Virus record (IMG/VR): IMGVR_UViG_2534681940_000023
Span: 1 to 9,206 of that record
Origin: a virus
Lineage: Duplodnaviria > Heunggongvirae > Uroviricota > Caudoviricetes
Direction: 5' to 3' (one strand)
DNA: 9,206 nucleotides
Made by a program: the position numbers and the translations under genes. Positions 1-9,206 of this stretch are shown here, one piece after another. The notes beneath the pieces are model-generated. The model did not search any database, was not told where the DNA came from, and saw only the letters and a program-made list of their open reading frames with translations. The number at the start of each line of letters is the position of its first letter. The stretch's first letter is position 1.

Positions 1-108
1 AGGACACGCCCCTGCATAAACAGGGGCATCAGCTCTGAACCTGGCCTGAACAATACGATCCCCATACGCGGGGCAATTTCAGGGGTCAGTAGTGCTCTCA
101 CGGTCACC

Positions 109-918
109 TCAATGAACGGTATCGAGCAGCTTTAACAGCTCAGGGAATCGGGATTCGAAGAAATGCGGCTGCGTCTCGCGCGGATTTGCGGGACTGGTGA
201 TGTTCTTGCCGAACATGCAGCCTTTCGCTGTCAGCGACCAGAATTTTTTGATGTTGTTAATCGCGGTACGGCTGTATCGTTCGCGCTGCTCGACGATCCC
301 CAGCTTCACCATCTGGTGATATGCCTGATTAGCTGTCAGGCGGATACCATACTGCTTCAGCAGTGCACTCAGTGACAGCGTGGGACGGCTTGAGCCATCA
401 GGCGCGTCAGCAGGAGCATCAATGGCATAGCGCGGTGCCAGATTCGGTAAGCCAACAGCCTCCTGGAGTTTCTGACAGGCACCAAGCACTGAAGAGTTAG
501 ACAGGTTTAACTCCCGGCGCATAAAGTCCAGCAGAATCACGCCAGCCTGCATCTTGTCAGCAGCCTGCCCGGATAATTTTTCCGGTGCGCTGGTTACCAT
601 ATCGAAAGTACGGATCACCTTCAGATGGAATGACGGGCTGATCCACATTGCATAGGCATACACCAGTTCCTTGCAGACATACGTTCCCCGTTCATTTCCC
701 CCATGAATCACACTCACCGGGTCAACACCCAAATTCTGGGTGTTGGTCAATTCATGAACAAGCTCAGCAGTCTGTTGGCTGGAAAGAAACTTTCCTGGCT
801 CCTTGGTTCTGGCATTTGCACCAGATGCTACTGCTGCGCGATGCAGATCGTTCAGGCTGTAACGCCCATAAGCATCACGACGAACTTCAATACCATCAAT
901 GACCATCAGATTATTCAT
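109..918 (-). CDS. KilA-N domain protein with antirepressor-like C-terminal half (269 aa)
   Basis: Track ORF 109..1020 begins at a TTG inside rusA, so I trimmed it to the ATG at 918-916, which follows GAGGAG (minus strand ...gatcaagaggagaaacgaagtATG). The N-terminal part (YSLNDLHRAA...GTYVCKELVYAYAMWISPSFHLKVIRTFD) fits the KilA-N pattern. The C-terminal half resembles phage antirepressor KilAC-type regions. Stop is TGA at 111-109. Confidence 0.8.
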   Translation of the reverse strand: MNNLMVIDGIEVRRDAYGRYSLNDLHRAAVASGANARTKEPGKFLSSQQTAELVHELTNTQNLGVDPVSVIHGGNERGTYVCKELVYAYAMWISPSFHLKVIRTFDMVTSAPEKLSGQAADKMQAGVILLDFMRRELNLSNSSVLGACQKLQEAVGLPNLAPRYAIDAPADAPDGSSRPTLSLSALLKQYGIRLTANQAYHQMVKLGIVEQRERYSRTAINNIKKFWSLTAKGCMFGKNITSPANPRETQPHFFESRFPELLKLLDTVH

Positions 919-937
919 ACTTCGTTTCTCCTCTTGA

Positions 938-1327
938 TCAGGCGGCTGCACCCGCCGTTTTCTCGTACTTACTGATAGTGATCTCGACCTTCCCTCCCGG
1001 GATAACCGGTCCCCACTCAACCAGCATTCTTTTCACCTGACTGTCGTCTTCCCACACACCCGCATGGGTCAGGGCGTCAAACAGCGCCTTGTTATAGTTG
1101 TCCAGATCGCGGATCCGGTTATCCGGCGGAAACAACACGATCTCCACTGAAGCAGGTGCCGACGTTGGTTTCGGCAGACGACGTAACTGCTCAACTATTG
1201 CTGCACACGCCGCGCTCTGGAATTTGCGCCCCGCCGCGCTTATCAGGCTCTTACCTGCAAACGCCCCTTTGTTGGGGTGTCGCCAGTACGTGTTCACGCT
1301 GGGCGGAAAAGGCAGGATCAGCTTCAT
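938..1327 (-). CDS. rusA: RusA-family Holliday junction resolvase (129 aa)
   Basis: MKLILPFPPSVNTYWRH...RIRDLDNYNKALFDALTHAGVWEDDSQV... matches the RusA layout (PPS-N-Y-R N-terminus, DLDN acidic motif, DD-Q-V). Its ATG overlaps the upstream stop as ATGA (1324-1327). The nin-region position next to a methylase is typical of lambdoid phages. Confidence 0.9.
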   Translation of the reverse strand: MKLILPFPPSVNTYWRHPNKGAFAGKSLISAAGRKFQSAACAAIVEQLRRLPKPTSAPASVEIVLFPPDNRIRDLDNYNKALFDALTHAGVWEDDSQVKRMLVEWGPVIPGGKVEITISKYEKTAGAAA

Positions 1328-1650
1328 ACTTTCAGGCCCCTCTCATGTAACCAGTGGGTTGCACGCAGCCTTGCGTTTTCCTCACCGGCAAGCAGTGCGC
1401 GGATAATCCCGACCGCCTCGCTGTCGTCGTCCTTCACCGCGGTATGAAGCGTTATCCCCCGGGCCACGCCACGCTTTATCGTGATGACGCCTTTTTTCTC
1501 CAGTGCGCGAAGATGCTCCACCGCTGCATTCACCGAACGGTATCCCAGCATGGTTGCCACCTCCTGATTGGTTGGCGGGAAGCCACGTTCTTTCTGATAA
1601 GAAATCAGCATATCCAACACCTGCTGCTGGCATTGAGTTAACGTCGTCAT
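1324..1650 (-). CDS. LexA N-terminal DNA-binding-domain-only protein (108 aa, no S24 peptidase domain)
   Basis: By-eye alignment to the E. coli LexA winged-helix domain: LexA [34 protein letters not shown] versus here PPTNQEVATMLGYRSVNAAVEHLRALEKKGVITI. The ORF ends about 35 residues later, so there is no Ala-Gly site and no Ser/Lys protease domain. ATGA overlaps occur at both ends (1647-1650 and 1324-1327). SD AGGGAG lies about 8 nt upstream. Confidence 0.8.
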   Translation of the reverse strand: MTTLTQCQQQVLDMLISYQKERGFPPTNQEVATMLGYRSVNAAVEHLRALEKKGVITIKRGVARGITLHTAVKDDDSEAVGIIRALLAGEENARLRATHWLHERGLKV

Positions 1651-2300
1651 GCCGCCATCTCCCTTACCAGTTTTTCTGCCTGCTGGCGAACCTGCGCCAG
1701 AAAGGCCTCACCACATGCCTCAAGTTCATCGCGCCCGATGTAGCTGATTGCCGGTCCCTTCCAGGTCTTGTCGAAAACAGCAATAGCACCAGCGAAGAAA
1801 GCGCCTGTCGGCACCTGCTTCTCATCCTTCGGGATAAACCAGGCAGGCAGTTCAAAACCAATACGCCCGCGAATAAAAGCAATATGATCTGCATCTTCCG
1901 GCCACCACACTTCGCTGGTGGCAGCTTTGATCAGGAAAACATAGCGCCCGCCTTTATCACGCATGGCACTGGCATGCTTCATGATGTAACGCATGCCGGT
2001 GATGTATTGCCCCTCATGCTGACTGGCGCGGCTGTATGGGGGATTACCAAAGGCAGCACCTTTAAGCTCCGCAAGACGTTCTGACCAGTCATGCGCCAGC
2101 GCGTTGTCTTCCGCCGTGTAATACGCGGCACATTTGGCGTTATCACCGTCAGTGAACAGATCCAGAACAAACGGACCAAACAAGGTGTTAATTCCCCAGA
2201 AAATGTTGTCCGGCGTGCGCCACTGATCGCCCACTTCCTTCAGTTCATGGGCTGGTTTGTTCCGCAGTTCTACCAGCGCCTGGCAATATTTATTACTCAT
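1647..2300 (-). CDS. Phage-type DNA N6-adenine methyltransferase (217 aa)
   Basis: It has the DQWRTP motif near the N-terminus and the catalytic FGNPPYS (NPPY) motif, as in the phage Dam methyltransferase family (YfdM-like). The start ATG at 2300 overlaps the upstream stop as TAATG. The stop overlaps the next start as ATGA. Confidence 0.85.
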   Translation of the reverse strand: MSNKYCQALVELRNKPAHELKEVGDQWRTPDNIFWGINTLFGPFVLDLFTDGDNAKCAAYYTAEDNALAHDWSERLAELKGAAFGNPPYSRASQHEGQYITGMRYIMKHASAMRDKGGRYVFLIKAATSEVWWPEDADHIAFIRGRIGFELPAWFIPKDEKQVPTGAFFAGAIAVFDKTWKGPAISYIGRDELEACGEAFLAQVRQQAEKLVREMAA

Positions 2301-2392
2301 TAAGCCCCCACGTAAAAAGCATCCGCAATGTCTCCGGAAGTACAGCCCGGATGGGCTTCAATGAATTTCTGAACGTCATTTAACAGACTCAT
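2300..2392 (-). CDS. 30-aa ORF (MSLLNDVQKFIEAHPGCTSGDIADAFYVGA), possibly the N-terminal fragment of a winged-helix protein
   Basis: It is below the ORF-track size cutoff and I found it by reading the minus strand. The ATG at 2392-2390 follows GGGGGTGATC and lies 2 nt after the replication-gene stop. Its TAA overlaps the methylase ATG (TAATG). The peptide resembles the first helices of small wHTH proteins but stops after 30 residues. Confidence 0.3.
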   Translation of the reverse strand: MSLLNDVQKFIEAHPGCTSGDIADAFYVGA

Positions 2393-2394
2393 GA

Positions 2395-3375
2395 TCACCC
2401 CCTGAATCCTGCCGGGATCTGGCTGTAGTCCACGTTGTCGTAACTGGCTTTGAAGTACGGGTCTTCACGTTTTTCTATGTGCGTGCTGACGGACGGCGAT
2501 AAGCGCAGGGAAAGCTCATCCCATTTTTCCCGCAACTTCGACGGGCTGAGCACGTTACGGCACCAGAACGGATCGCGGCTGACGCGGCTGTACATCTCGC
2601 AGATTTGTTTGTGAGTACGACCATCCTGCACACACATCAGGCGAATTTCGTTTGCCCATGCTGTCCAGTTCGGTTCTTTGGGACGAACCACCTCGCCGTC
2701 ACATTCGGCGGCCTGCTCGTACAGGGCGATGATTTTTTTCCAGAGCCACTGTGCGCAGGTCAAATCATCCTGCGTTCCCCACTGGCGCTTTTTAGGGCTG
2801 AATACAACCGCATCAGGATGGCGAGTTAAAAACTCCTGTTCAGCCGTTTGCGTGTCCGGTTGCGAAGCGTCCGGACGAGAAGAGGTTTTATTCTCTGTAG
2901 TAATCTCTGTTGTATTCTCTGTAAGATCGAAATTGGTTTTCCCTTCTCCGCGGCGAGGGGTTTCCCGTGTCCGCTGTGAAGGCTTTCCCTCCTCCGCGAA
3001 ATTGGGTTTTACAGTTTCCCGAAAACGGGTTTCCCCATTTCGGGAAAACTGATTGTTTTCATTGATAAGTTCATTAAGGCGCTCACAATCTATACGGTAG
3101 AACATTTTGTGCTCAAGACGCTTGTTGGTTTCAACCAAAATGCCTCTGGACACAAGATGCTTACGCGCTACAGCCTGTTGTTCAAATGTAAGTCCGGTTT
3201 CGTGTTGTATCTCTTCACGCGTTTTATGTACGCCTTCCGCTGCATGTGCTTTATCCTGCCAGTAAAAAATCTGACCAAAGAAAATAACAGCGTGCGGACT
3301 TCCCATGTATTTAACGAGCCCAGGGTAATAAGCAACCGGATGCCCAAAATCGAGCAGAAGATCAGACGGACGCAT
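2395..3375 (-). CDS. Replication initiator / replisome organizer, lambda O-like (YfdO-like C-terminus), 326 aa
   Basis: Track ORF starts at GTG 3381. The ATG at 3375-3373 has a better SD (GGGAGGTGGCT ATG). It has an N-terminal wHTH-like region, a low-complexity middle encoded by DNA iterons, and a conserved C-terminal region (WGTQDDLTCAQWLWKKI...PFWCRNVLSPSKLREKWDEL). Its position after the cII-like and Rha genes is as expected for a lambdoid O gene. Confidence 0.8.
   Translation of the reverse strand: MRPSDLLLDFGHPVAYYPGLVKYMGSPHAVIFFGQIFYWQDKAHAAEGVHKTREEIQHETGLTFEQQAVARKHLVSRGILVETNKRLEHKMFYRIDCERLNELINENNQFSRNGETRFRETVKPNFAEEGKPSQRTRETPRRGEGKTNFDLTENTTEITTENKTSSRPDASQPDTQTAEQEFLTRHPDAVVFSPKKRQWGTQDDLTCAQWLWKKIIALYEQAAECDGEVVRPKEPNWTAWANEIRLMCVQDGRTHKQICEMYSRVSRDPFWCRNVLSPSKLREKWDELSLRLSPSVSTHIEKREDPYFKASYDNVDYSQIPAGFRG
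2929..3050. repeat. Iteron array, putative phage origin of replication inside the O-like gene
   Basis: TTTCCC-centred units lie at 2938, 2961, 2984 (exactly 23 bp apart), 3015 and 3030, plus an inverted GGGAAA at 3042. Examples are GGTTTTCCCTTCTCCGCG, GGGTTTCCCGTGTCCGC, GGCTTTCCCTCCTCCGCG and TTTCCCGAAAACGGGTTTCCCCATTTCGGGAAAAC. The array is flanked at 2885-2925 by an AT-rich TCTCTGT x3 stretch. This mirrors lambda ori, which has iterons plus an AT-rich region within O. Confidence 0.55.
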
Positions 3376-3595
3376 AGCCACCTCCCAGACGCTTAAACAT
3401 TTTCCCGGACTGAAAAGCCACCAGCGGATAACTCAGGGTATGAGTACGCCCCTGAACCTGACAGACAACCTTCTGGCTTTCTGTGTTGACCAGACAAACC
3501 CGCAGAACGTGACCGTTGCTGGTGGTGAACCACTGCCCCACACGGGGGCAGTGGTTGTATCGGTGATACAGAGAATTCACAACACGACGAATCAT
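3362..3595 (-). CDS. Small phage protein, 77 aa, possibly DUF4222/SH3-like
   Basis: ATG at 3595 follows GGAGGTG and forms an ATGA overlap with the upstream ORF. The 3' end overlaps the O-like start by 14 nt. Its WF..G..LRV...Q.VV...G pattern resembles the 57-aa ORF at 5092-5265. Confidence 0.6.
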   Translation of the reverse strand: MIRRVVNSLYHRYNHCPRVGQWFTTSNGHVLRVCLVNTESQKVVCQVQGRTHTLSYPLVAFQSGKMFKRLGGGYASV

Positions 3596-3786
3596 GGACG
3601 CACCTCCGCCGTTGTGATGTATTTAACCGGGCTGCCTTTCATTGCGATGATTTCACACATCTCCGCTGCTTTACGTTCCGCTGTTTTCCTGGATTTATAG
3701 CGGCGGTGCCAAACAGACGTATCCGTGCGAACTGATACATCGTTTCTGTATTCCGTAGTGGAGATGATGATTTCGTAACTAATCAT
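3592..3786 (-). CDS. Hypothetical small phage protein, 64 aa
   Basis: ATG at 3786 follows a strong SD (AAGGAGGT, about 6 nt spacing). ATGA overlaps occur with Rha upstream (3783-3786) and the 77-aa ORF downstream (3592-3595). I recognise no family. Confidence 0.6.
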
Positions 3787-4346
3787 GGGCGTACCTCCTT
3801 GTCAGAACCATTCAGCCTGGAATCAACAAGTGCAGCACCAAAAACAGCATCACCTACACGGTCGTACAGTTTGCCAGCCAGCGGAGATTCAACAGCCTTA
3901 AGCATGGGATAAAGCTGGCTTCTCCAGATTTGATGGATTTCACGCAAATGCAGGTATACGCCTCTGGCGTTTTGTGCGACAGATGACATCTCAGCCGCAC
4001 CAGCTCCTGATAAGCTCCTCTCCATCTGGTTAAAGGCATTGATGTATGCCTCTTTGAACCGGGCGGCACGCTTGCCAGTGAAGCCCATAGCAAGGAATGC
4101 GAAGCCGTCGCGGGTGATTTGATAGCAGGGAAGTTTGCGAGTACCGCCGTTGGGCTGGCGTACCAAAATTGATGTCTCCGCAAAATTGCGGGCACAAAAC
4201 TCTGGAGAACAATCCAAAATGCGGATCTTTTTCAGAACATCGTCATGACGTTTAGAGAAGAAGTCAGCAACAGCCAAAGAAGATGTAACAGCCTGACCAT
4301 CAACGATGGCAATTTCAGGTTGAGAGAGAGTTGGGAAAGTAGTCAT
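3783..4346 (-). CDS. Rha-family phage regulatory protein (187 aa from the internal ATG)
   Basis: [41 protein letters not shown]...[35 protein letters not shown] is a typical Rha (pRha) domain, and Rha proteins start about 20 aa before the V-TS--VA--F-K-H--VL motif. The ATG at 4346-4344 has only a weak GGGG SD. The frame stays open upstream to 5444, so the true start is unresolved. Confidence 0.75.
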
Positions 4347-4638
4347 GGTGACAGCCCCTATGTTGAATTCAAAGAACTCACCACATGGGACGCCAATCAC
4401 AGAGGTGGTGAGACGTACAGGGTTGGCGTAACCGGTCAACATAGAACCCGGCGCATCTTGCGATGCCCCTGCACGCCCCACCATAATTTGGACGTAGCAA
4501 TGCTCATGATACGAAAAGACCGCATGAGCGCGGTTATGCTCTATATTGAATTCCAGGACGCCAATCCCGACACCCGCTTTATAAGGTGCCTGAACAGTGT
4601 AACGTCCCGAAATTGAGGAATCAATGTTTTGATAAAAT
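4347..4638 (-). other. Coding-like segment in frame with Rha but lacking its own canonical start
   Basis: Translation (...[88 protein letters not shown]) shows a strong G-at-codon-position-1 bias typical of real coding sequence. There is no ATG or SD between the ProQ-like stop (4639) and this segment. In-frame GTG codons at 4712 and 4709 have no SD. Confidence 0.3.
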
Positions 4639-5031
4639 TCAGCGATTAGACGCTTCTTTTCTACCCATATTAACTTTGAACAAGAGCTCCATACGACGAG
4701 TCCAGACACCACGTTCTTTGAGTTGTGCTCTGGCTTCTTCGCGCTCAGATACGGAAGTTCTGACAATACGATTTCCAGCCAGATTGCGGCGATATTCTCC
4801 AAACGCGACTGACTGAAGGTATGCAGCGGAGCTTTTGTACTGATAGATGGCTCTTCGAAGGCTGTTTTTATATTCCTTAGGTATATGTCCGAGATCGGCA
4901 AAAAGCTCATGAACGATATCGTGAACAAGCGGAACAACTTTGTATGGAATAACAAAGAAGCTTTCTGGATAGCGTTCAGCCAATACTTTAATGATTTCTT
5001 TATTTGCAAGATGCCTTGCTTTTCTTCCCAT
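4639..5031 (-). CDS. ProQ/FinO-domain RNA-binding protein (130 aa)
   Basis: ATG at 5031 has SD GGAGAA about 8 nt upstream. By-eye alignment to the E. coli ProQ N-terminal FinO-like domain: SSKEVIAFLAERFPHCF / [17 protein letters not shown]; LRSALRLYTSSWRYL / [15 protein letters not shown]; GATRVDLDGN / [10 protein letters not shown]; ARKQLEE / ARAQLKE. The gene is visibly more AT-rich than its neighbours. Confidence 0.8.
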
Positions 5032-5061
5032 ATACCATTCTCCATTACTCCAGATATCAGA

Positions 5062-5089
5062 ATGATATATCCAGGTTCAAGCAGTTCAA
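5062..5089 (-). promoter_or_regulatory. Candidate internal sigma70 promoter ahead of the ProQ/FinO-like gene
   Basis: The minus strand reads GCTTGAACTGCTTGAACC (tandem TTGAAC). The first TTGAAC (5089-5084) is followed by a 16-nt spacer and TATCAT (5067-5062). This lies just after the stop of the 57-aa ORF and about 30 nt before the ProQ-like ATG. It is a motif match only. Confidence 0.3.
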
Positions 5090-5091
5090 GC

Positions 5092-5265
5092 TTATGCTGG
5101 TGCTTCGCACTCAACAAAATCACGACGAAACAACCACAGCGGGCTGAAGCATTCATGCGGATAACCATCACGCAGGTAAATAACCCGCTGTGTTTCCGGT
5201 TCCCAACGAATGACTCTGACGGGCACTCCGTAGTGATCTTTGAACCAGCGGTTAACTTGTTGCAA
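5092..5265 (-). CDS. 57-aa TTG-initiated small protein, DUF4222-like ([57 protein letters not shown])
   Basis: It is absent from the ORF track because it is under 60 aa. TTG at 5265-5263 lies 8 nt after GAAGGAGA (revcomp of 5273-5280), and the frame is closed by a TGA just upstream. TAA is at 5094-5092. The V-YLRDGY---C--P--F---F pattern matches my recollection of the DUF4222 small phage protein family. It is in the same frame as the ProQ-like gene. Confidence 0.5.
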
Positions 5266-5444
5266 AGGACTGTCTCCTTCTGCCGGTTGAAATCACCCAC
5301 AGCCCACTCTGCAAATCTGTGGGTTACAATTTCCCTGTCACCTGGTACATTCACTGCATAGCAATACTCCACCTTCGCTTTTCCACCCGGTACAGGAAGC
5401 GCAATCAGTTGCGAGCGACGGTAGTGTGTTGTTAAACTGTTCAT
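5266..5444 (-). CDS. Start-proximal part of an ORF ([57 protein letters not shown]...); 3' end unresolved
   Basis: ATG at 5444-5442 follows GGAGAA and overlaps the CII-like stop as ATGA, so initiation is well supported. The first 60 or so codons look coding. There is no in-frame stop until 3783, so the end given here is only where a better-supported gene in another frame begins. Confidence 0.4.
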
Positions 5445-6082
5445 GCGTTAGTTTCTCCACAACCAGAAGCAATCGACGCCACGACGCCCGGAGCTGCACA
5501 CTCGCGGGCGTTACTCTTTTCCGGCGCACAAAAAACACGAAATAACAGTGTTAAATGCTCCTTCCACTTCGCCATTACTTGGTAGCTGTTCTCTTCGATT
5601 TGCTCACGCTCAGCCTGGTCAATAACTCCATCAGCAGTTGCCTTGCGTAAGTACTGGGAATGCTTGCCAATCCATTCTATTGACTCCATCAGCCGCTGAT
5701 TAATGTCACCATTGTCAATGTCATCAATGACCACCAGCGGCACAAACACCCCATTACTACGACGGGCTATTGCATCCGTTACATGCCTGGTACCACTGGC
5801 ATCCTGTAAAACCATGGCCCACTCAAGTGGAAAAATTTGATCCCCACCGCTACGCAGTCTGTTATGCAATTGATCTTTTGCTGGGGTGATATCATCAGAT
5901 TTATACAAACCAAGAATTTCTGCTGCTTCCTCATAGCCATGAGGTAAATCAGCAATCGTTCTTCGTATTGCTGCCACCAGCCATGCTGGTTGCTTATCAA
6001 CTTTCCATTCAGGTTCTTTACCCACGTTTAAGCCCTCATATCTGTGGTTTCTGTAAATCGATTTATCCATTAGATTTTTCAT
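5441..6082 (-). CDS. CII-like lysogeny regulator (phage 186 CII/CP76- or YdaT-type), about 213 aa
   Basis: It has the layout of CP76/YdaT-type CII analogues: an HTH-like region ([12 protein letters not shown]...), then ...[23 protein letters not shown]... and ...[28 protein letters not shown]. It lies immediately downstream of cro and overlaps it. The start is uncertain: ATG 6082 (MKNLMDKS), ATG 6070, or the track's GTG 6139. None has a strong SD. Confidence 0.7.
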
Positions 6083-6263
6083 AAAGCTCAGGTTTAAATG
6101 GCAACCGTCCGCAAGTTCTATATGCAGCCTCTGCTGCACGTCCTTTTGGAATTAACTGGCCAGGACGGTTTCGCCACTGATAAACGGCTTCAGTTGTTAT
6201 GCCGAAAAAAGCAGCAACTTTCTCAATGCTGCCGAAGTAGCTTTCGATATCGTCAGTCGTCAT
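6063..6263 (-). CDS. Cro/YdaS-type HTH regulator (66 aa)
   Basis: ATG at 6263 follows SD GGAGGG (revcomp of 6267-6272). The HTH IEKVAAFFGITTEAVYQWRNRPGQLIPKGRAAEAAYRTCGRL resembles YdaS/Cro family proteins. It is divergent from the repressor gene. Confidence 0.85.
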   Translation of the reverse strand: MTTDDIESYFGSIEKVAAFFGITTEAVYQWRNRPGQLIPKGRAAEAAYRTCGRLPFKPELYEKSNG

Positions 6264-6274
6264 ATGCCCTCCAA

Positions 6275-6339
6275 ACTAAGTTTTATTAGATGTTAATTAT
6301 CAATCTATCTTAGGTCAATAAAAACTAAGATTACTTAGT
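6275..6339. promoter_or_regulatory. OR-like operator cluster (three 16-bp sites)
   Basis: The sites are 6275-6290 ACTAAGTTTTATTAGA, 6299-6314 ATCAATCTATCTTAGG (weak left half) and 6324-6339 ACTAAGATTACTTAGT (perfect palindrome). Centre spacing is 24-25 bp, as in lambda OR1-3. The same ACTAAG-N4-NTTAGN motif recurs at 7016-7031 and 7052-7067. Confidence 0.6.
6290..6318 (-). promoter_or_regulatory. PR-like promoter for the cro operon
   Basis: The minus strand has TTGACC (6318-6313), a 17-nt spacer, and TAACAT (6295-6290), about 30 nt upstream of the cro ATG. The flanking operator sites overlap both the -35 and the -10/+1. Confidence 0.5.
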
Positions 6340-6360
6340 AATTAAAGAAATGGTGCTCCT

Positions 6361-6987
6361 ATGGAAACGGTTGGTCAGCGTATAAAAGCTCTGAGAAGAG
6401 TTACCAGAACGTCCCAGAAAGAATTGGGTAAATTTTGTGGAGTAAGTGACGTTGCTGTGGGGTACTGGGAGAAAGACATCAATGTCCCTGGTGGGGAAGC
6501 ACTTTCAAAATTAGCGAAGTTCTTCAATACGTCAATAGATTACATTCTTTATGGTGCGGAGTTTGAAGGCAAACTCGTCACAAACATGCGCAGAGTTCCT
6601 GTAATCTCGTGGGTTCAGGCTGGGCAGTTTACTGAGTGCAGGACAGCAGAAGTGTTTAGTGAAGTAGACAAGTGGGTAGATACATCATTAAAGATTGGTG
6701 ATAACTCATTTGCATTGGAGGTTAAAGGCGACTCCATGACTAACCCTAACGGCCTCCCAACAATACCAGAAGGCGCAACAGTGATTGTAGATCCTGATGC
6801 AGAACCCCGGCATGGAAAAATAGTCATCGCTAGACTTGATGGAACAAACGAAGCCACAGTAAAAAAATTAGTTATCGATGGCCCTCAAAAGTTTTTAGTG
6901 CCATTAAATCCCCGGTACCCCAACATTCCGATCAATGGTAATTGCCTCATCATTGGTGTAGTCAAAGGAGTTCAATACGAACTCTAG
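6361..6987 (+). CDS. CI-type prophage repressor, XRE HTH plus S24 (LexA-like) autopeptidase domain (208 aa)
   Basis: N-terminal HTH is QKELGKFCGVSDVAVGYWEKD. A cleavage-site-like VQAGQF is present. The catalytic Ser lies in KGDSMTNP and the Lys in ATVKKLV. It is divergent from cro, and a terminator follows directly. Confidence 0.9.
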   Translation: METVGQRIKALRRVTRTSQKELGKFCGVSDVAVGYWEKDINVPGGEALSKLAKFFNTSIDYILYGAEFEGKLVTNMRRVPVISWVQAGQFTECRTAEVFSEVDKWVDTSLKIGDNSFALEVKGDSMTNPNGLPTIPEGATVIVDPDAEPRHGKIVIARLDGTNEATVKKLVIDGPQKFLVPLNPRYPNIPINGNCLIIGVVKGVQYEL

Positions 6988-7005
6988 CCCCCCTTTTCTC
7001 TAACC

Positions 7006-7042
7006 AAAACACCGAACTAAGAAAAGTTTGGTGTTTTCTCTT
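7006..7042 (+). terminator. Intrinsic terminator after the repressor gene
   Basis: The stem is AAAACACCGAAC (7006-7017) paired with GTTTGGTGTTTT (7026-7037). That is 12 pairs including one G-U, with an 8-nt loop. The 3' arm ends in TTTT followed by CTCTT. It lies 19 nt after the cI stop. Confidence 0.6.
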
Positions 7043-7069
7043 GCCATCAAAACTAAGTTAAGTTAGATT
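7041..7069 (+). promoter_or_regulatory. PL-like promoter with embedded operator
   Basis: TTGCCA (7041-7046), a 17-nt spacer, and TAGATT (7064-7069). The operator-like ACTAAGTTAAGTTAGA (7052-7067) fills the spacer. A second site, ACTAAGAAAAGTTTGG (7016-7031), lies in the terminator loop and 3' arm. Confidence 0.45.
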
Positions 7070-7164
7070 TTATATCAAAGATAACGAACAGGCAGGACGC
7101 CCACGAAGTAGCCGACGGTGGCGTATGAATGACCGGATGATTCGCGCATGGCAGGAGAGTGAAT

Positions 7165-7533
7165 ATGGATGGCAGTATCGACAACCAACGAGATGCCTGG
7201 CTTGTGGTGATTGAAGCAGCAAAAACTGCATTAAGCCAAGTTGAAAGCAGTAACTACAGAACAGTTAAACAAATGGCTTTGGGCTCTATTATCTATGCCT
7301 TTGAAAGGCTGGACTTTGATTTTGAAGCAACGAGTATTCTGTCAGAACAACATGAAAAAATGAATAGAGAAGACGCCGCAGCCTATATCGGCGTAGAAGC
7401 GCAAACCTTAGCTAATTGGGCTAGCACAGGAAAAGTTCGAATACCTTTTTTAAAAATCGGTAGAAAGGTTATTTACCTAAAAAGTGATCTTGATGCCTAT
7501 CTTGCCTCATCGAAGGCAAATACCACCAAGTAG
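7165..7533 (+). CDS. First early-left gene: protein with C-terminal excisionase/MerR-type HTH (122 aa)
   Basis: Track start GTG 7159 is only 1 nt from AGGAG (7153-7157). The ATG at 7165 is 7 nt away, so I prefer it. The C-terminal REDAAAYIGVEAQTLANWASTGKVRIPFLKIGRKVIYLKSDLDAYL fits the excisionase-family HTH. I do not recognise the N-terminal 70 or so aa. Confidence 0.7.
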   Translation: MDGSIDNQRDAWLVVIEAAKTALSQVESSNYRTVKQMALGSIIYAFERLDFDFEATSILSEQHEKMNREDAAAYIGVEAQTLANWASTGKVRIPFLKIGRKVIYLKSDLDAYLASSKANTTK

Positions 7534-7741
7534 CTCACGTACCTACCACCTCGCCTGATGTGGCTAAAAGCAGGCACATAACAGCTAAGTATTTTCAACC
7601 AGAGAGAATCCTTAGCGTTGTGGTGAATGCGGCTCAGCGCACGCGGGTTAAGGTTGAGACTGACAGTCGACCTTCTGTGGATACCCACCCGCCTGGTGTG
7701 CAACCTTCGCCAGGCACCGGGAGGCACCCGGCACCACAACA

Positions 7742-7799
7742 GCCACTGCTTTGGCGGTACCAGTTTGTACACTTGCTTCCGGCTGGTACCGCTCTTTTT
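7742..7799 (+). ncRNA. DicF-like sRNA candidate (5' end approximate)
   Basis: The core TTTGGCGGTACCAGTTTGTAC (7750-7770) closely matches my recollection of K-12 DicF, TTTGGCGGTATCAGTTTTAC. It has a similar architecture, with the GGCGG arm opening a hairpin that ends in a U-tract. Like dicF in Qin, it sits in the repressor-controlled operon opposite cro. The 5' part differs from K-12 DicF. Confidence 0.45.
7753..7799 (+). terminator. Intrinsic terminator (3' end of the DicF-like RNA) inside the early-left operon
   Basis: GGCGGTACCAG (7753-7763) pairs with CTGGTACCGCT (7783-7793). That is 10 Watson-Crick pairs plus one G-U, with a 19-nt loop, followed by C and TTTTT (7795-7799). Confidence 0.6.
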
Positions 7800-7893
7800 A
7801 CAAAACAGAGAAGAGCATCACCGGACGACGGGCTCATAACCCAATCCACCCGGGCGGCTGCCACCGCAGGTGCTCTTCTCTGTTTTGTGGAGA
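7795..7893 (+). other. Long RNA hairpin: 17-bp perfect inverted repeat, extendable to about 25 pairs
   Basis: CAAAACAGAGAAGAGCA (7801-7817) is the exact reverse complement of TGCTCTTCTCTGTTTTG (7871-7887). G-U and A-U pairs extend it outward to 7795/7893 and inward to 7819/7869. The roughly 50-nt apical region can form small CCGG/CCGG, GGG/CCC and GCGG/CCGC helices. Confidence 0.6.
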
Positions 7894-7936
7894 AACCAAC
7901 CGACCTTGCAGGGTCGATATGATGAGGAGCAGCAAA

Positions 7937-8299
7937 ATGGCTAGCGAACGCAGTACTGATGTGCAGGCATTTATCGGGGAGCTGGACGGCGGCGTATTTG
8001 AAACCAAAATCGGCGCTGTTCTCAGTGAAGTCGCTTCAGGTGTGATGAACACGAAAACCAAAGGGAAGGTCTCGCTCAACCTGGAAATCGAACCGTTTGA
8101 TGAGAACCGTGTGAAAATAAAACACAAACTCTCATATGTTCGTCCGACTAACCGCGGGAAAATTTCCGAAGAAGACACCACCGAAACGCCGATGTATGTC
8201 AATCGCGGTGGTCGCCTGACTATTCTGCAGGAAGACCAGGGACAATTACTGACTCTTGCCGGTGAACCTGACGGAAAACTCCGCGCAGCAGGTCATTAA
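7937..8299 (+). CDS. yfdP: YfdP-like prophage protein (120 aa)
   Basis: Track ORF 7751..8299 is trimmed to the ATG at 7937, which lies 7 nt after GAGGAG (7924-7929). The upstream part of the track ORF runs through the hairpin region. The 120-aa product MASERSTDVQAFIGELDGG... matches the length of K-12 CPS-53 YfdP and, as far as I recall, its sequence. It is followed by a yfdQ-like gene as in K-12. The symbol is from memory. Confidence 0.75.
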   Translation: MASERSTDVQAFIGELDGGVFETKIGAVLSEVASGVMNTKTKGKVSLNLEIEPFDENRVKIKHKLSYVRPTNRGKISEEDTTETPMYVNRGGRLTILQEDQGQLLTLAGEPDGKLRAAGH

Positions 8300-8364
8300 T
8301 ATCGTTCTTAATTAACTGATTATTTATCTCATCACTGAATATCCTTATATAGTGAGGACTTATT

Positions 8365-9189
8365 ATGTCTCAGAACTTAGACGCAACCGCAATTAATCAA
8401 ATCCATGCCCTTATTTCTGCTCAGGGTGTTAATGAAATTATTAGTAAGATTGGTGCCGATGCTGTGGCATTGCCTGAGAATTTCCGCATTCATGATCTGG
8501 AAAAATTTAATTTAAATCGCTTCCGTTTCCGTGGTGCGCTTTCCACTGCCAGCATCGATGACTTTACCCGTTATTCTAAAGATCTTGCAGATGAAGGCAC
8601 CCGCTGCTTTATCGATGCCGATAATATGCGTGCCGTCAGTGTGCTTAACCTGGGTACTATTGATGAACCAGGTCACGCAGATAACACCGCCACTCTCAAA
8701 CTGAAAAAGACAGCACCGTTCTCTGCTCTGTTGTCTGTTAATGGCGAGCGTAACTCCCAAAAGTCACTGGCAGAATGGATTGAAGACTGGGCCGACTACC
8801 TTGTGGGCTTTGATGCTAATGGTGACGCCATTCAGGCAACCAAAGCGGCTGCGGCGATCCGTAAAATCACAATTGAAGCGAACCAGACCGCTGATTTTGA
8901 AGACAATGACTTCAGCGGCAAACGCTCCCTGATGGAGTCTGTCGAAGCGAAGACCAAAGACATTATGCCAGTGGCATTTGAATTTAAATGCGTTCCGTTT
9001 GAAGGCCTGAAAGAACGTCCGTTTAAATTACGCCTCAGCATTATCACTGGCGATCGTCCTGTACTGGTTCTGCGCATTATTCAGCTGGAAGCGGTGCAGG
9101 AAGAAATGGCTAACGAATTTCGTGATCTGCTTGTTGAGAAATTTAAAGACAGCAAAGTAGAAACCTTTATTGGTACTTTCACCGCCTGA
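8365..9189 (+). CDS. yfdQ: YfdQ-like DUF2303 prophage protein (274 aa)
   Basis: The ATG at 8365 follows GTGAGGA. The 274-aa product has the same length as K-12 YfdQ and is in the same gene order after yfdP. Codon usage is clean and no competing ORFs are present. The family assignment is from memory. Confidence 0.85.
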
Positions 9190-9206
9190 TTTCATTACTG
9201 CAAATG

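Follow-up and report, generated by a model that had tools for sequence, protein, structure and literature searches.

A DicF-related hairpin in the early-left leader of a lambdoid prophage, a candidate terminator and small RNA module distinct from DicF

A 9,206-nucleotide (nt) stretch of viral DNA (Caudoviricetes; IMG/VR record IMGVR_UViG_2534681940_000023, positions 1 to 9,206), referred to here as the window, comprises the immunity region of a lambdoid prophage of the type of mEp460, SfV, SfIV, and ST64B. The part of it that concerns us, positions 7741-7799, carries a conserved and stable hairpin followed by a U-tract that lies in an operator-controlled operon and is related to the terminator domain of DicF, a prophage small RNA (sRNA). 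Judged by Rfam membership and by its target-pairing sequence the element is not DicF, and we regard it as a terminator/sRNA module of the DicF superfamily with a seed unlike that of DicF. The reading that we favor, at a probability of roughly 0.55, is that this segment would act as an intrinsic terminator of the tL type and would at the same time provide the 3' end of a processed sRNA.

Positions 7750-7770 of the window read TTTGGCGGTACCAGTTTGTAC. K-12 DicF contains TTTGGCGGTATCAGTTTTAC, and the window departs from it in two places, a T-to-C substitution and an inserted G. The original prediction for this segment, that of a DicF-like sRNA, had relied on a DicF core said to match at all but about two positions, which is correct. 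Thousands of E. coli genomes contain the 58-nt K-12 DicF query at 100% identity, and it falls where dicF is annotated in NC_000913.3 (MG1655). When the 17-mer DicF core TTTGGCGGTATCAGTTT was compared with positions 7750-7766, 16 of the 17 bases agreed (one mismatch), and none of 200 dinucleotide shuffles of the window contained the 17-mer with two or fewer mismatches. The hairpin and DicF were aligned by blastn with 36 identities in 51 positions and an E-value of 0.002 in a search space of 400 x 570 nt.

The GGCGG-closed hairpin and U-tract that had been predicted are both present. G7753-G7763 pair with C7783-U7793 through ten Watson-Crick pairs and one G-U pair to give a GC-rich 11-pair stem, and CUUUUU follows directly. 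A 71-nt fold has a calculated energy of -22.5 kcal/mol (z = -3.5; none of 200 shuffles was equally stable); the hairpin folded alone gives -20.8 kcal/mol. The 11 pairs of the window stem are perfect whereas the DicF stem is made up of 7 + 4 pairs with bulges. The stem and the CUUUUU tail fit the usual description of an intrinsic terminator, but the 19-nt loop lies outside the usual range of 3-8 nt, and a simple intrinsic-terminator scan with a loop limit of 8 nt did not list the hairpin. The loop of DicF is of similar size, and termination of transcription by DicF is reported (PMC5069750).

The hairpin belongs to a family that is found upstream of yfdP. A set of 31 loci from many genera that encode YfdP homologues (46-100% identity) was compared, and in most of them a hairpin that starts with UUGGCGG is located 140-200 nt 5' of yfdP, with loops of 13-45 nt. 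Every member of the family has a run of 5-8 U after the hairpin. The hairpin is conserved in Escherichia, Shigella, Salmonella phage ST64B, Enterobacter, Kosakonia, Phytobacter, Mangrovibacter, Providencia, and others. The window has all the features by which we define the yfdP-leader family, namely a UUGGCGG hairpin, 5-8 U, a distance of ~140-200 nt to yfdP, and a three-way junction immediately following. Hairpins were picked by an anchored pattern and hand curation, and 18 sequences, the window included, were aligned. In this alignment 86.9% of the cells are paired, compared with at most 59% in slid controls. In three sequences with long loops the 3' arm was placed wrongly by MAFFT, an error that lowers the pairing counts and does not raise them. 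Six pairs are changed on both sides, in 18 cells, and none of 500 shuffles reaches the observed covariation score. Examples of compensatory changes are UACC/GGUA to CGUC/GGCG and GGCGG/CCGCC to GGUGG/CCACC. The allele found in the window is present in 1392 of 5426 complete E. coli genomes and is unannotated in all of the matches listed; the wider spacer has matches in 2809 of the 5426. No Rfam family was matched by the hairpins of ten other loci, and full-text literature searches on yfdP and on the hairpin sequence returned no description of the hairpin family or of the junction RNA that follows it.

Two side observations were made on the same loci. In Salmonella phage ST64B (locus L041, 1406-1450) a second GGCGG-based hairpin with a U-tract, CUGGCGGCCCG...CCGCCAGCUUUUU, is located further upstream, and the upstream regions of L012-L014, L017, and L035 likewise contain a second GGCGG hairpin. 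PL leaders can therefore hold more than one terminator-like site. Additionally, contigs labelled Fredinandcohnia humi, Martelella alba, and Chryseobacterium sp. (L019, L022, L023, L027) bear an enterobacterial-type prophage with yfdP, and these contigs are probably the result of assembly contamination.

The kinship with DicF was determined using a covariance model, R1, that was built from the 18 yfdP-leader sequences without DicF. R1 finds K-12 dicF from its first to its last base at 25.5 bits, while the best remaining match outside the family scored 12.2 bits in 350 kb (175 kb of sequence with both strands counted). The window itself scores 45.2 bits but is one of the 18 training sequences; members found outside the training set are L013, L023, L028, L029, L032, L035, ST64B, and mEp460. 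A bridging variant is present in E. coli 2013C-3033 (L042, 690-746), where an RNA upstream of dicB passes the Rfam DicF threshold at 55.9 bits and scores 31.5 bits with R1. This RNA carries the 5' leader typical of the yfdP family, CAUGUGUAGUCUUUGG, and a compensated GGUGG/CCACC stem base, which shows that DicF copies themselves differ in the 5' seed. Because a DicF-free model finds dicF and because such a variant exists, the hairpin is, on these comparisons, a diverged relative of DicF. The two RNAs have UUUGGCGGUAYCAGUUU in common, both form a hairpin with a GGCGG/CCGCC base, and both end in five U. Each is an untranslated part of a repressor-controlled lambdoid early-left operon beside an STnc100-like core. 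They differ in the 3' half of the loop, the 3' arm, and the 5' end, where the sequences of DicF are not those of the window element. The core lies downstream of DicF in K-12 and upstream of the hairpin in the window, and the next gene is dicB after DicF and yfdP after the window hairpin. The unpaired leader is AGCCACUGCUUU in the window, UGUGUGUAGUCUU in most relatives, and UUUCUGGUGACGUUU in DicF, and four leader classes are found (AGCCACUGCUUU, UGUGUGUAGUCUU, GUGGUAGUUG, and UUGAUAGUUUU). The scaffold is therefore common to them, and the likely seeds are different.

Relatedness to DicF, as originally predicted, is borne out; membership in the DicF family is not. The Rfam DicF model (RF00039, gathering score 48 bits) had no match at E <= 10 in positions 7400-8000 (601 nt) or in positions 7725-7810 (86 nt), a scan of the latter being sensitive enough to list a 1.6-bit match to another family, and the original prediction had named such an outcome as one that would count against it. 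The same model gave 76.7 bits for the K-12 dicF control and recovered the 2013C-3033 variant at the score given above. The target-pairing regions of DicF are not conserved either. Pairing with the ribosome-binding site of ftsZ is ascribed to the DicF 3' region (PMC5069750), and in agreement with this a windowed duplex scan paired DicF nt 32-53 best with ftsZ -28 to -7 at -22.7 kcal/mol. The window RNA has another sequence in place of this stretch (approximately nt 32-53). The best duplex that the window RNA forms with the ftsZ leader reaches -18.1 kcal/mol and is located elsewhere in the leader, and 31 of 60 shuffles were as good. The 5' seed of DicF, UUUCUGGUGACG, pairs with xylR and pykA (PMC5069750), and the aligned positions of the window have CAGCCACUGC; the DicF seed is not conserved there. 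The accompanying caveat that target specificity could differ proved well placed, as both regions are replaced, and for this reason the trans-acting targets of the window RNA, if there are any, would differ from those of DicF.

It is very improbable that the element works as DicF does, as an orthologue that represses translation of ftsZ and makes cells filament. Such an orthologue would account for the 16/17 core match, for the identical hairpin base, and for the same operon context, and two of the features that define DicF, the GGCGG/CCGCC hairpin with its U-tract (by sequence and fold) and a place in a repressor-controlled early-left prophage operon, are indeed shared. The other three, a score above the gathering score, the ftsZ-pairing region, and the xylR/pykA seed, are lacking: RF00039 gives no match even on 86 nt, the stretch that pairs with ftsZ is replaced by one whose duplex is equalled by half of the shuffles (31/60), and the 5' seed is not conserved. 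The element should not be filed as DicF and should not be expected to block ftsZ.

The setting of the hairpin bears on what it may do. It is located ~700 nt 3' of an operator-controlled PL, after the first open reading frame (ORF) of the operon and an STnc100-like core and before the three-way-junction RNA and yfdP, which agrees with the proposal that it lies inside a repressor-controlled operon. The operator repeat AACTAAGTTAAGTTAGAT at 7050-7068 overlaps the PL-like promoter (repeat families D1, I2, and I3), and two further copies are present between cI and cro. No promoter nearer to the hairpin than PL was found in the promoter scan. The hairpin was also considered as a terminator of the cI transcript and was rejected in that role, as cI has a hairpin of its own and PL lies upstream of the DicF-related hairpin. 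RNA polymerase coming from PL, or reading in, would stop at the hairpin unless it had been made termination-resistant. Because the hairpin is in the middle of the early-left operon, expression of yfdP and yfdQ would need read-through, as had been predicted, and a stop at the hairpin, which would affect part of the transcription from PL, would gate yfdP, yfdQ, and yfdR and would create the 3' end of an sRNA. Two lengths are conceivable for this sRNA, ~200 nt if it is the complete STnc100-like RNA (7599-7799) and ~55-60 nt if it is a fragment. Cleavage at the closing strand of the core, CACCACAAC, which ends at 7740, would release the shorter RNA (7741-7799), by analogy with the excision of DicF from the dicBF transcript. 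DicF belongs to the dicBF operon of the Qin prophage; its 53-nt form ends by Rho-independent termination, RNase III makes the 3' end of its 72-nt form, and the 5' end results from cleavage by RNase E (PMC5069750).

Several points weigh against this reading. The U-tract is short, with five U, and the 19-nt loop is larger than intrinsic terminators usually have. The window allele lacks the 5' leader UGUGUGUAGUC that is kept in most relatives, and a seed function for AGCCACUGCUUU is for this reason unsupported. A target complementary to the leader or the loop was sought inside the window and none was found, the only match being the site itself. The E-values obtained with R1 are rough, its calibration having been shortened.

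The same facts could be explained by a hairpin that is a transcription terminator or insulator and nothing else, one that bars unmodified RNA polymerase from the early-left genes like the lambda tL terminators and whose terminated RNA has no function of its own, an explanation that we regard as rather unlikely. What is conserved would then be the hairpin and U-tract, and it is these that are conserved while the loops vary widely in sequence and length; the 5' leader of the window is not the conserved one, and read-through could come from the conserved element with which the PL transcript starts. Tight gating would also be sensible, as overexpression of yfdQ-yfdT is reported to inhibit replication initiation (PMC4776307). 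A bare terminator, however, would not need a conserved leader, and the 10-13 unpaired bases before the hairpin, UGUGUGUAGUC, are conserved across genera and are common to the DicF variant; moreover, the relative DicF is a trans-acting sRNA. It is improbable that the functional unit is instead the whole STnc100-family RNA of ~200 nt (7599-7801), with the hairpin as its terminator and the likeness to DicF incidental to its function. The Rfam STnc100 model (RF02076, gathering score 47) aligns at full length to 7599-7801 with 36.3 bits and an E-value of 2.7e-6, the DicF-related hairpin falls at the terminator of the model, the SfV-type allele (L009) comes close to the threshold with 45.1 bits, and STnc100 and PasD are described as prophage sRNAs (bioRxiv 10.64898/2026.05.13.724894). 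Both scores are nonetheless under the gathering score, and the association of hairpin and core is loose: many loci have the hairpin without the core or with unrelated cores that include a true tRNA, and Buttiauxella (L014) and the K-12 dicF-dicB spacer have the core and lack the hairpin. The hairpin is linked far more tightly to the junction RNA and yfdP than to the core. STnc100 copies have been described in the late region, downstream of stx2 or near Q (PMC12370729; bioRxiv 10.64898/2026.05.13.724894), whereas the window core belongs to the PL leader, with the immunity region on one side and yfdP on the other.

That the region encodes a protein has a practically negligible chance of being correct. 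The ORF list does contain a 120-amino-acid (aa) ORF with a GTG start (7560-7922), a 70-aa ORF (7627-7839), and an extension of yfdP from a TTG at 7751, and several GenBank phage records place a 'hypothetical protein' or 'orf32' over the region. None of the spacer ORFs has a Pfam match, however, and RefSeq leaves the spacer of ~400 nt between the first ORF and yfdP unannotated. In 24 homologous leaders no frame is conserved: the yfdP frame is closed 6-40 nt upstream in most of them, the longest ORF switches frame and strand between loci, and the lengths of the hairpin loops differ by non-multiples of three. A protein-coding spacer was rejected on these grounds. SfV orf32 and the records of SfII, SfIV, PhiR49, and other phages have hypothetical proteins annotated across the structured leader (window 7560-7922), and as no frame is conserved the annotations are probably spurious.

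The coordinates of the element and of its neighbors are collected in Table 1.

Table 1. Features of the window from cro to yfdQ, with the basis on which each was assigned.
Feature	Position	Strand	Basis
cro	6063-6263	minus	
cI, LexA-like	6361-6987		
cI-side terminator hairpin	7006-7037		inverted repeat I7
PL-like promoter TTGCCA-17-TAGATT	7041-7069	plus	promoter scan; function inferred
Conserved structured element at the 5' end of the PL transcript: CGAACAGGCAGGACGCCCACGAAGUAGCC, covarying 5-pair hairpin, GAUGAUUCGC	7080-7147	plus	consensus fold
First early-left ORF, 122 aa, C-terminal HTH_17	7165-7533	plus	translation; Pfam PF12728, E 3.6e-9
STnc100-like multi-hairpin core, closed by GUUGUGGUG (7617-7625) and CACCACAAC (7732-7740)	7617-7740	plus	Rfam alignment; fold
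Unpaired leader AGCCACUGCUUU, possible seed, allele-specific	7741-7752	plus	alignment of 18 sequences; upstream sequences
DicF-related hairpin, 11-pair stem GGCGGUACCAG/CUGGUACCGCU, 19-nt loop	7753-7793	plus	folds; covariation; model R1
U-tract CUUUUU	7794-7799	plus	sequence
Three-way-junction RNA, ~20-pair basal stem, inner hairpin GGG-CUCAUAA-CCC	7800-7888	plus	inverted repeat I1; folds; consensus
Small hairpin preceding the yfdP ribosome-binding site	7901-7916	plus	folds
yfdP ribosome-binding site GAGGAG	7924-7929		
yfdP, first gene 3' of the hairpin	7937-8299	plus	translation; RefSeq annotation of a 99.5% identical locus
yfdQ	8365-9189	plus	ORF list; RefSeq annotation

The STnc100-like core shares with STnc100 and PasD a closing stem, GGUGAAU, and several hairpins that are followed by CACCGGGAGGCACCCGGCACCA, with the hairpin aligned to the terminator. 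It differs from them in its sub-threshold score and in its terminator, the sequence of which is unrelated to the STnc100 consensus. An STnc100-like core is also present in the dicF-dicB spacer of K-12 Qin (L004, 1647-1787), where it scores 34.1 bits and has 37 of 44 identities over its 5' part. The closing duplex of this K-12 core, which lies downstream of dicF, has ~25 pairs, and by our own count the 3' end of the 72-nt form of DicF, the end reported to be made by RNase III, falls in the 5' strand of this duplex. The STnc100-like cores are for this reason plausible RNase III sites. The core was considered as a put-type RNA and was rejected, as it has no likeness to the putL and putR sequences of HK022.

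The slot that holds the core is exchangeable: four or more cores unrelated to one another, all closed by the stem GUUGUGG/CCACAAC, occur there in different prophages. In two loci of Phytobacter ursingii (L024, 1722-1800; L029, 1186-1264) the slot is occupied, behind the same 5' flank, by a tRNA-Ile(aat) that was called by ARAGORN and that scores 52.8 bits with the Rfam tRNA model; ARAGORN found no tRNA in the window. Some sRNAs, those of the 3'ETS-leuZ type, are cut from the 3' trailers of tRNA precursors. The leader and hairpin of Phytobacter ursingii would resemble these in being a tRNA 3' trailer that ends in a terminator, whereas the slot in the window holds a structured core that is not a tRNA, and its processing is inferred only.

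The element at 7080-7147 directly follows unrelated promoters and operators in approximately 18 loci. Its consensus has 15 pairs, with 95.2% of the cells paired (at most 44% in slid controls) and 15 compensatory cells. It is found in 53 phage records, the listed organism names of which span at least ten genera, and is almost never annotated; it is absent from Rfam. It is a candidate read-through or antitermination element. The putL site of HK022 is located at the 5' end of the PL transcript (PMC9378689), and the element agrees with it in this position, while its size of ~70 nt also fits a put-type RNA. The resemblance to putL and putR is weak, as judged by eye, and HK022 was not among the blastn matches. 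The predicted terminator inside an early-left operon, downstream of PL, is a feature in common with the lambda tL and nutL/N system. Neither an N-like gene nor a boxA/boxB pair that is conserved was seen. The sequence CGCUCUUUUUACAAAAC, which we take to resemble the rrn and lambda boxA, was examined as a boxA or nut site and was rejected, as most relatives have CCGCCCUUUUUACACAAC and no boxB-type hairpin follows. By eye, no upstream segment is strongly complementary to the 5' arm of the DicF-related hairpin, as would be expected of an antiterminator pairing.

The three-way-junction RNA begins directly after the U-tract. Its consensus has 32 pairs, of which ten have compensatory changes, and in ten other loci it matched no Rfam family. 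The inner hairpin, CGGGCUCAUAACCC, has exactly the sequence of the anticodon arm of E. coli initiator tRNA-fMet (the tRNA sequence was verified), and the basal duplex of ~20 pairs could serve as an RNase III site. Nearer to yfdP, the hairpin that is found just before the ribosome-binding site was predicted in all 20 of the homologous leaders that were folded.

The remaining observations concern the rest of the prophage. At the locus of the first early-left ORF, RefSeq has a helix-turn-helix protein that is shorter than the 122-aa ORF. Just past the stop codon of this ORF, the motif CCACCUCGCCUGAUGUGGCUAAAAGCAGGCAC (7546-7579, plus strand) can form two interleaved helices, CCAC/GUGG and GCCUG/CAGGC. 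It occurs in six distinct variants, and the variant in L030 has a compensatory GCCGG/CCGGC; the CCACCUCGCCUGAYGUGG motif of this segment recurs in the dicB leader of 2013C-3033 (L042, 466-497). On the minus strand, Rfam matches above the gathering score were obtained for C4 antisense RNA (4401-4488, 80.1 bits) and for the adjoining isrK (4513-4589, 54.1 bits). Both overlap a mechanically listed 553-aa ORF (3783-5444, minus strand), and the pair suggests a P1-type immI/antirepressor control module in the prophage.

A broader proposal, which we consider unlikely as a whole, is that the stretch of ~860 nt from PL to yfdP is an undescribed RNA-based early-left control region composed of exchangeable structured modules and that DicF is the only member so far studied of a large family of prophage sRNAs whose seeds have been swapped. 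In such a region the 5' element at the putL position could make RNA polymerase termination-resistant; the pseudoknot-like motif would follow, and then a cassette slot for STnc100-like cores or a tRNA; the DicF-superfamily hairpin would both terminate transcription and yield sRNAs with interchangeable seeds. The junction RNA would display a copy of the initiator-tRNA anticodon arm and could be a decoy or regulator of the translation-initiation or tRNA-targeting machinery.

Whatever the standing of that proposal, DicF has so far been treated as a single, narrowly defined prophage sRNA, and the results indicate that it falls within a much larger, unannotated family of hairpin-terminator modules in lambdoid early-left leaders, which have a common terminator scaffold and different unpaired leaders and loops. 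Annotation pipelines that are based on RF00039 would miss nearly all members of this family, and the comparison also guards against wrong annotation, as the copy in the window is not to be called DicF or assumed to block cell division. The position of yfdP-yfdR behind a conserved predicted terminator bears on the silencing of prophage genes that interfere with replication. Expression of the modules on induction, if it takes place, could enable prophages to direct a varied set of sRNAs at the host.

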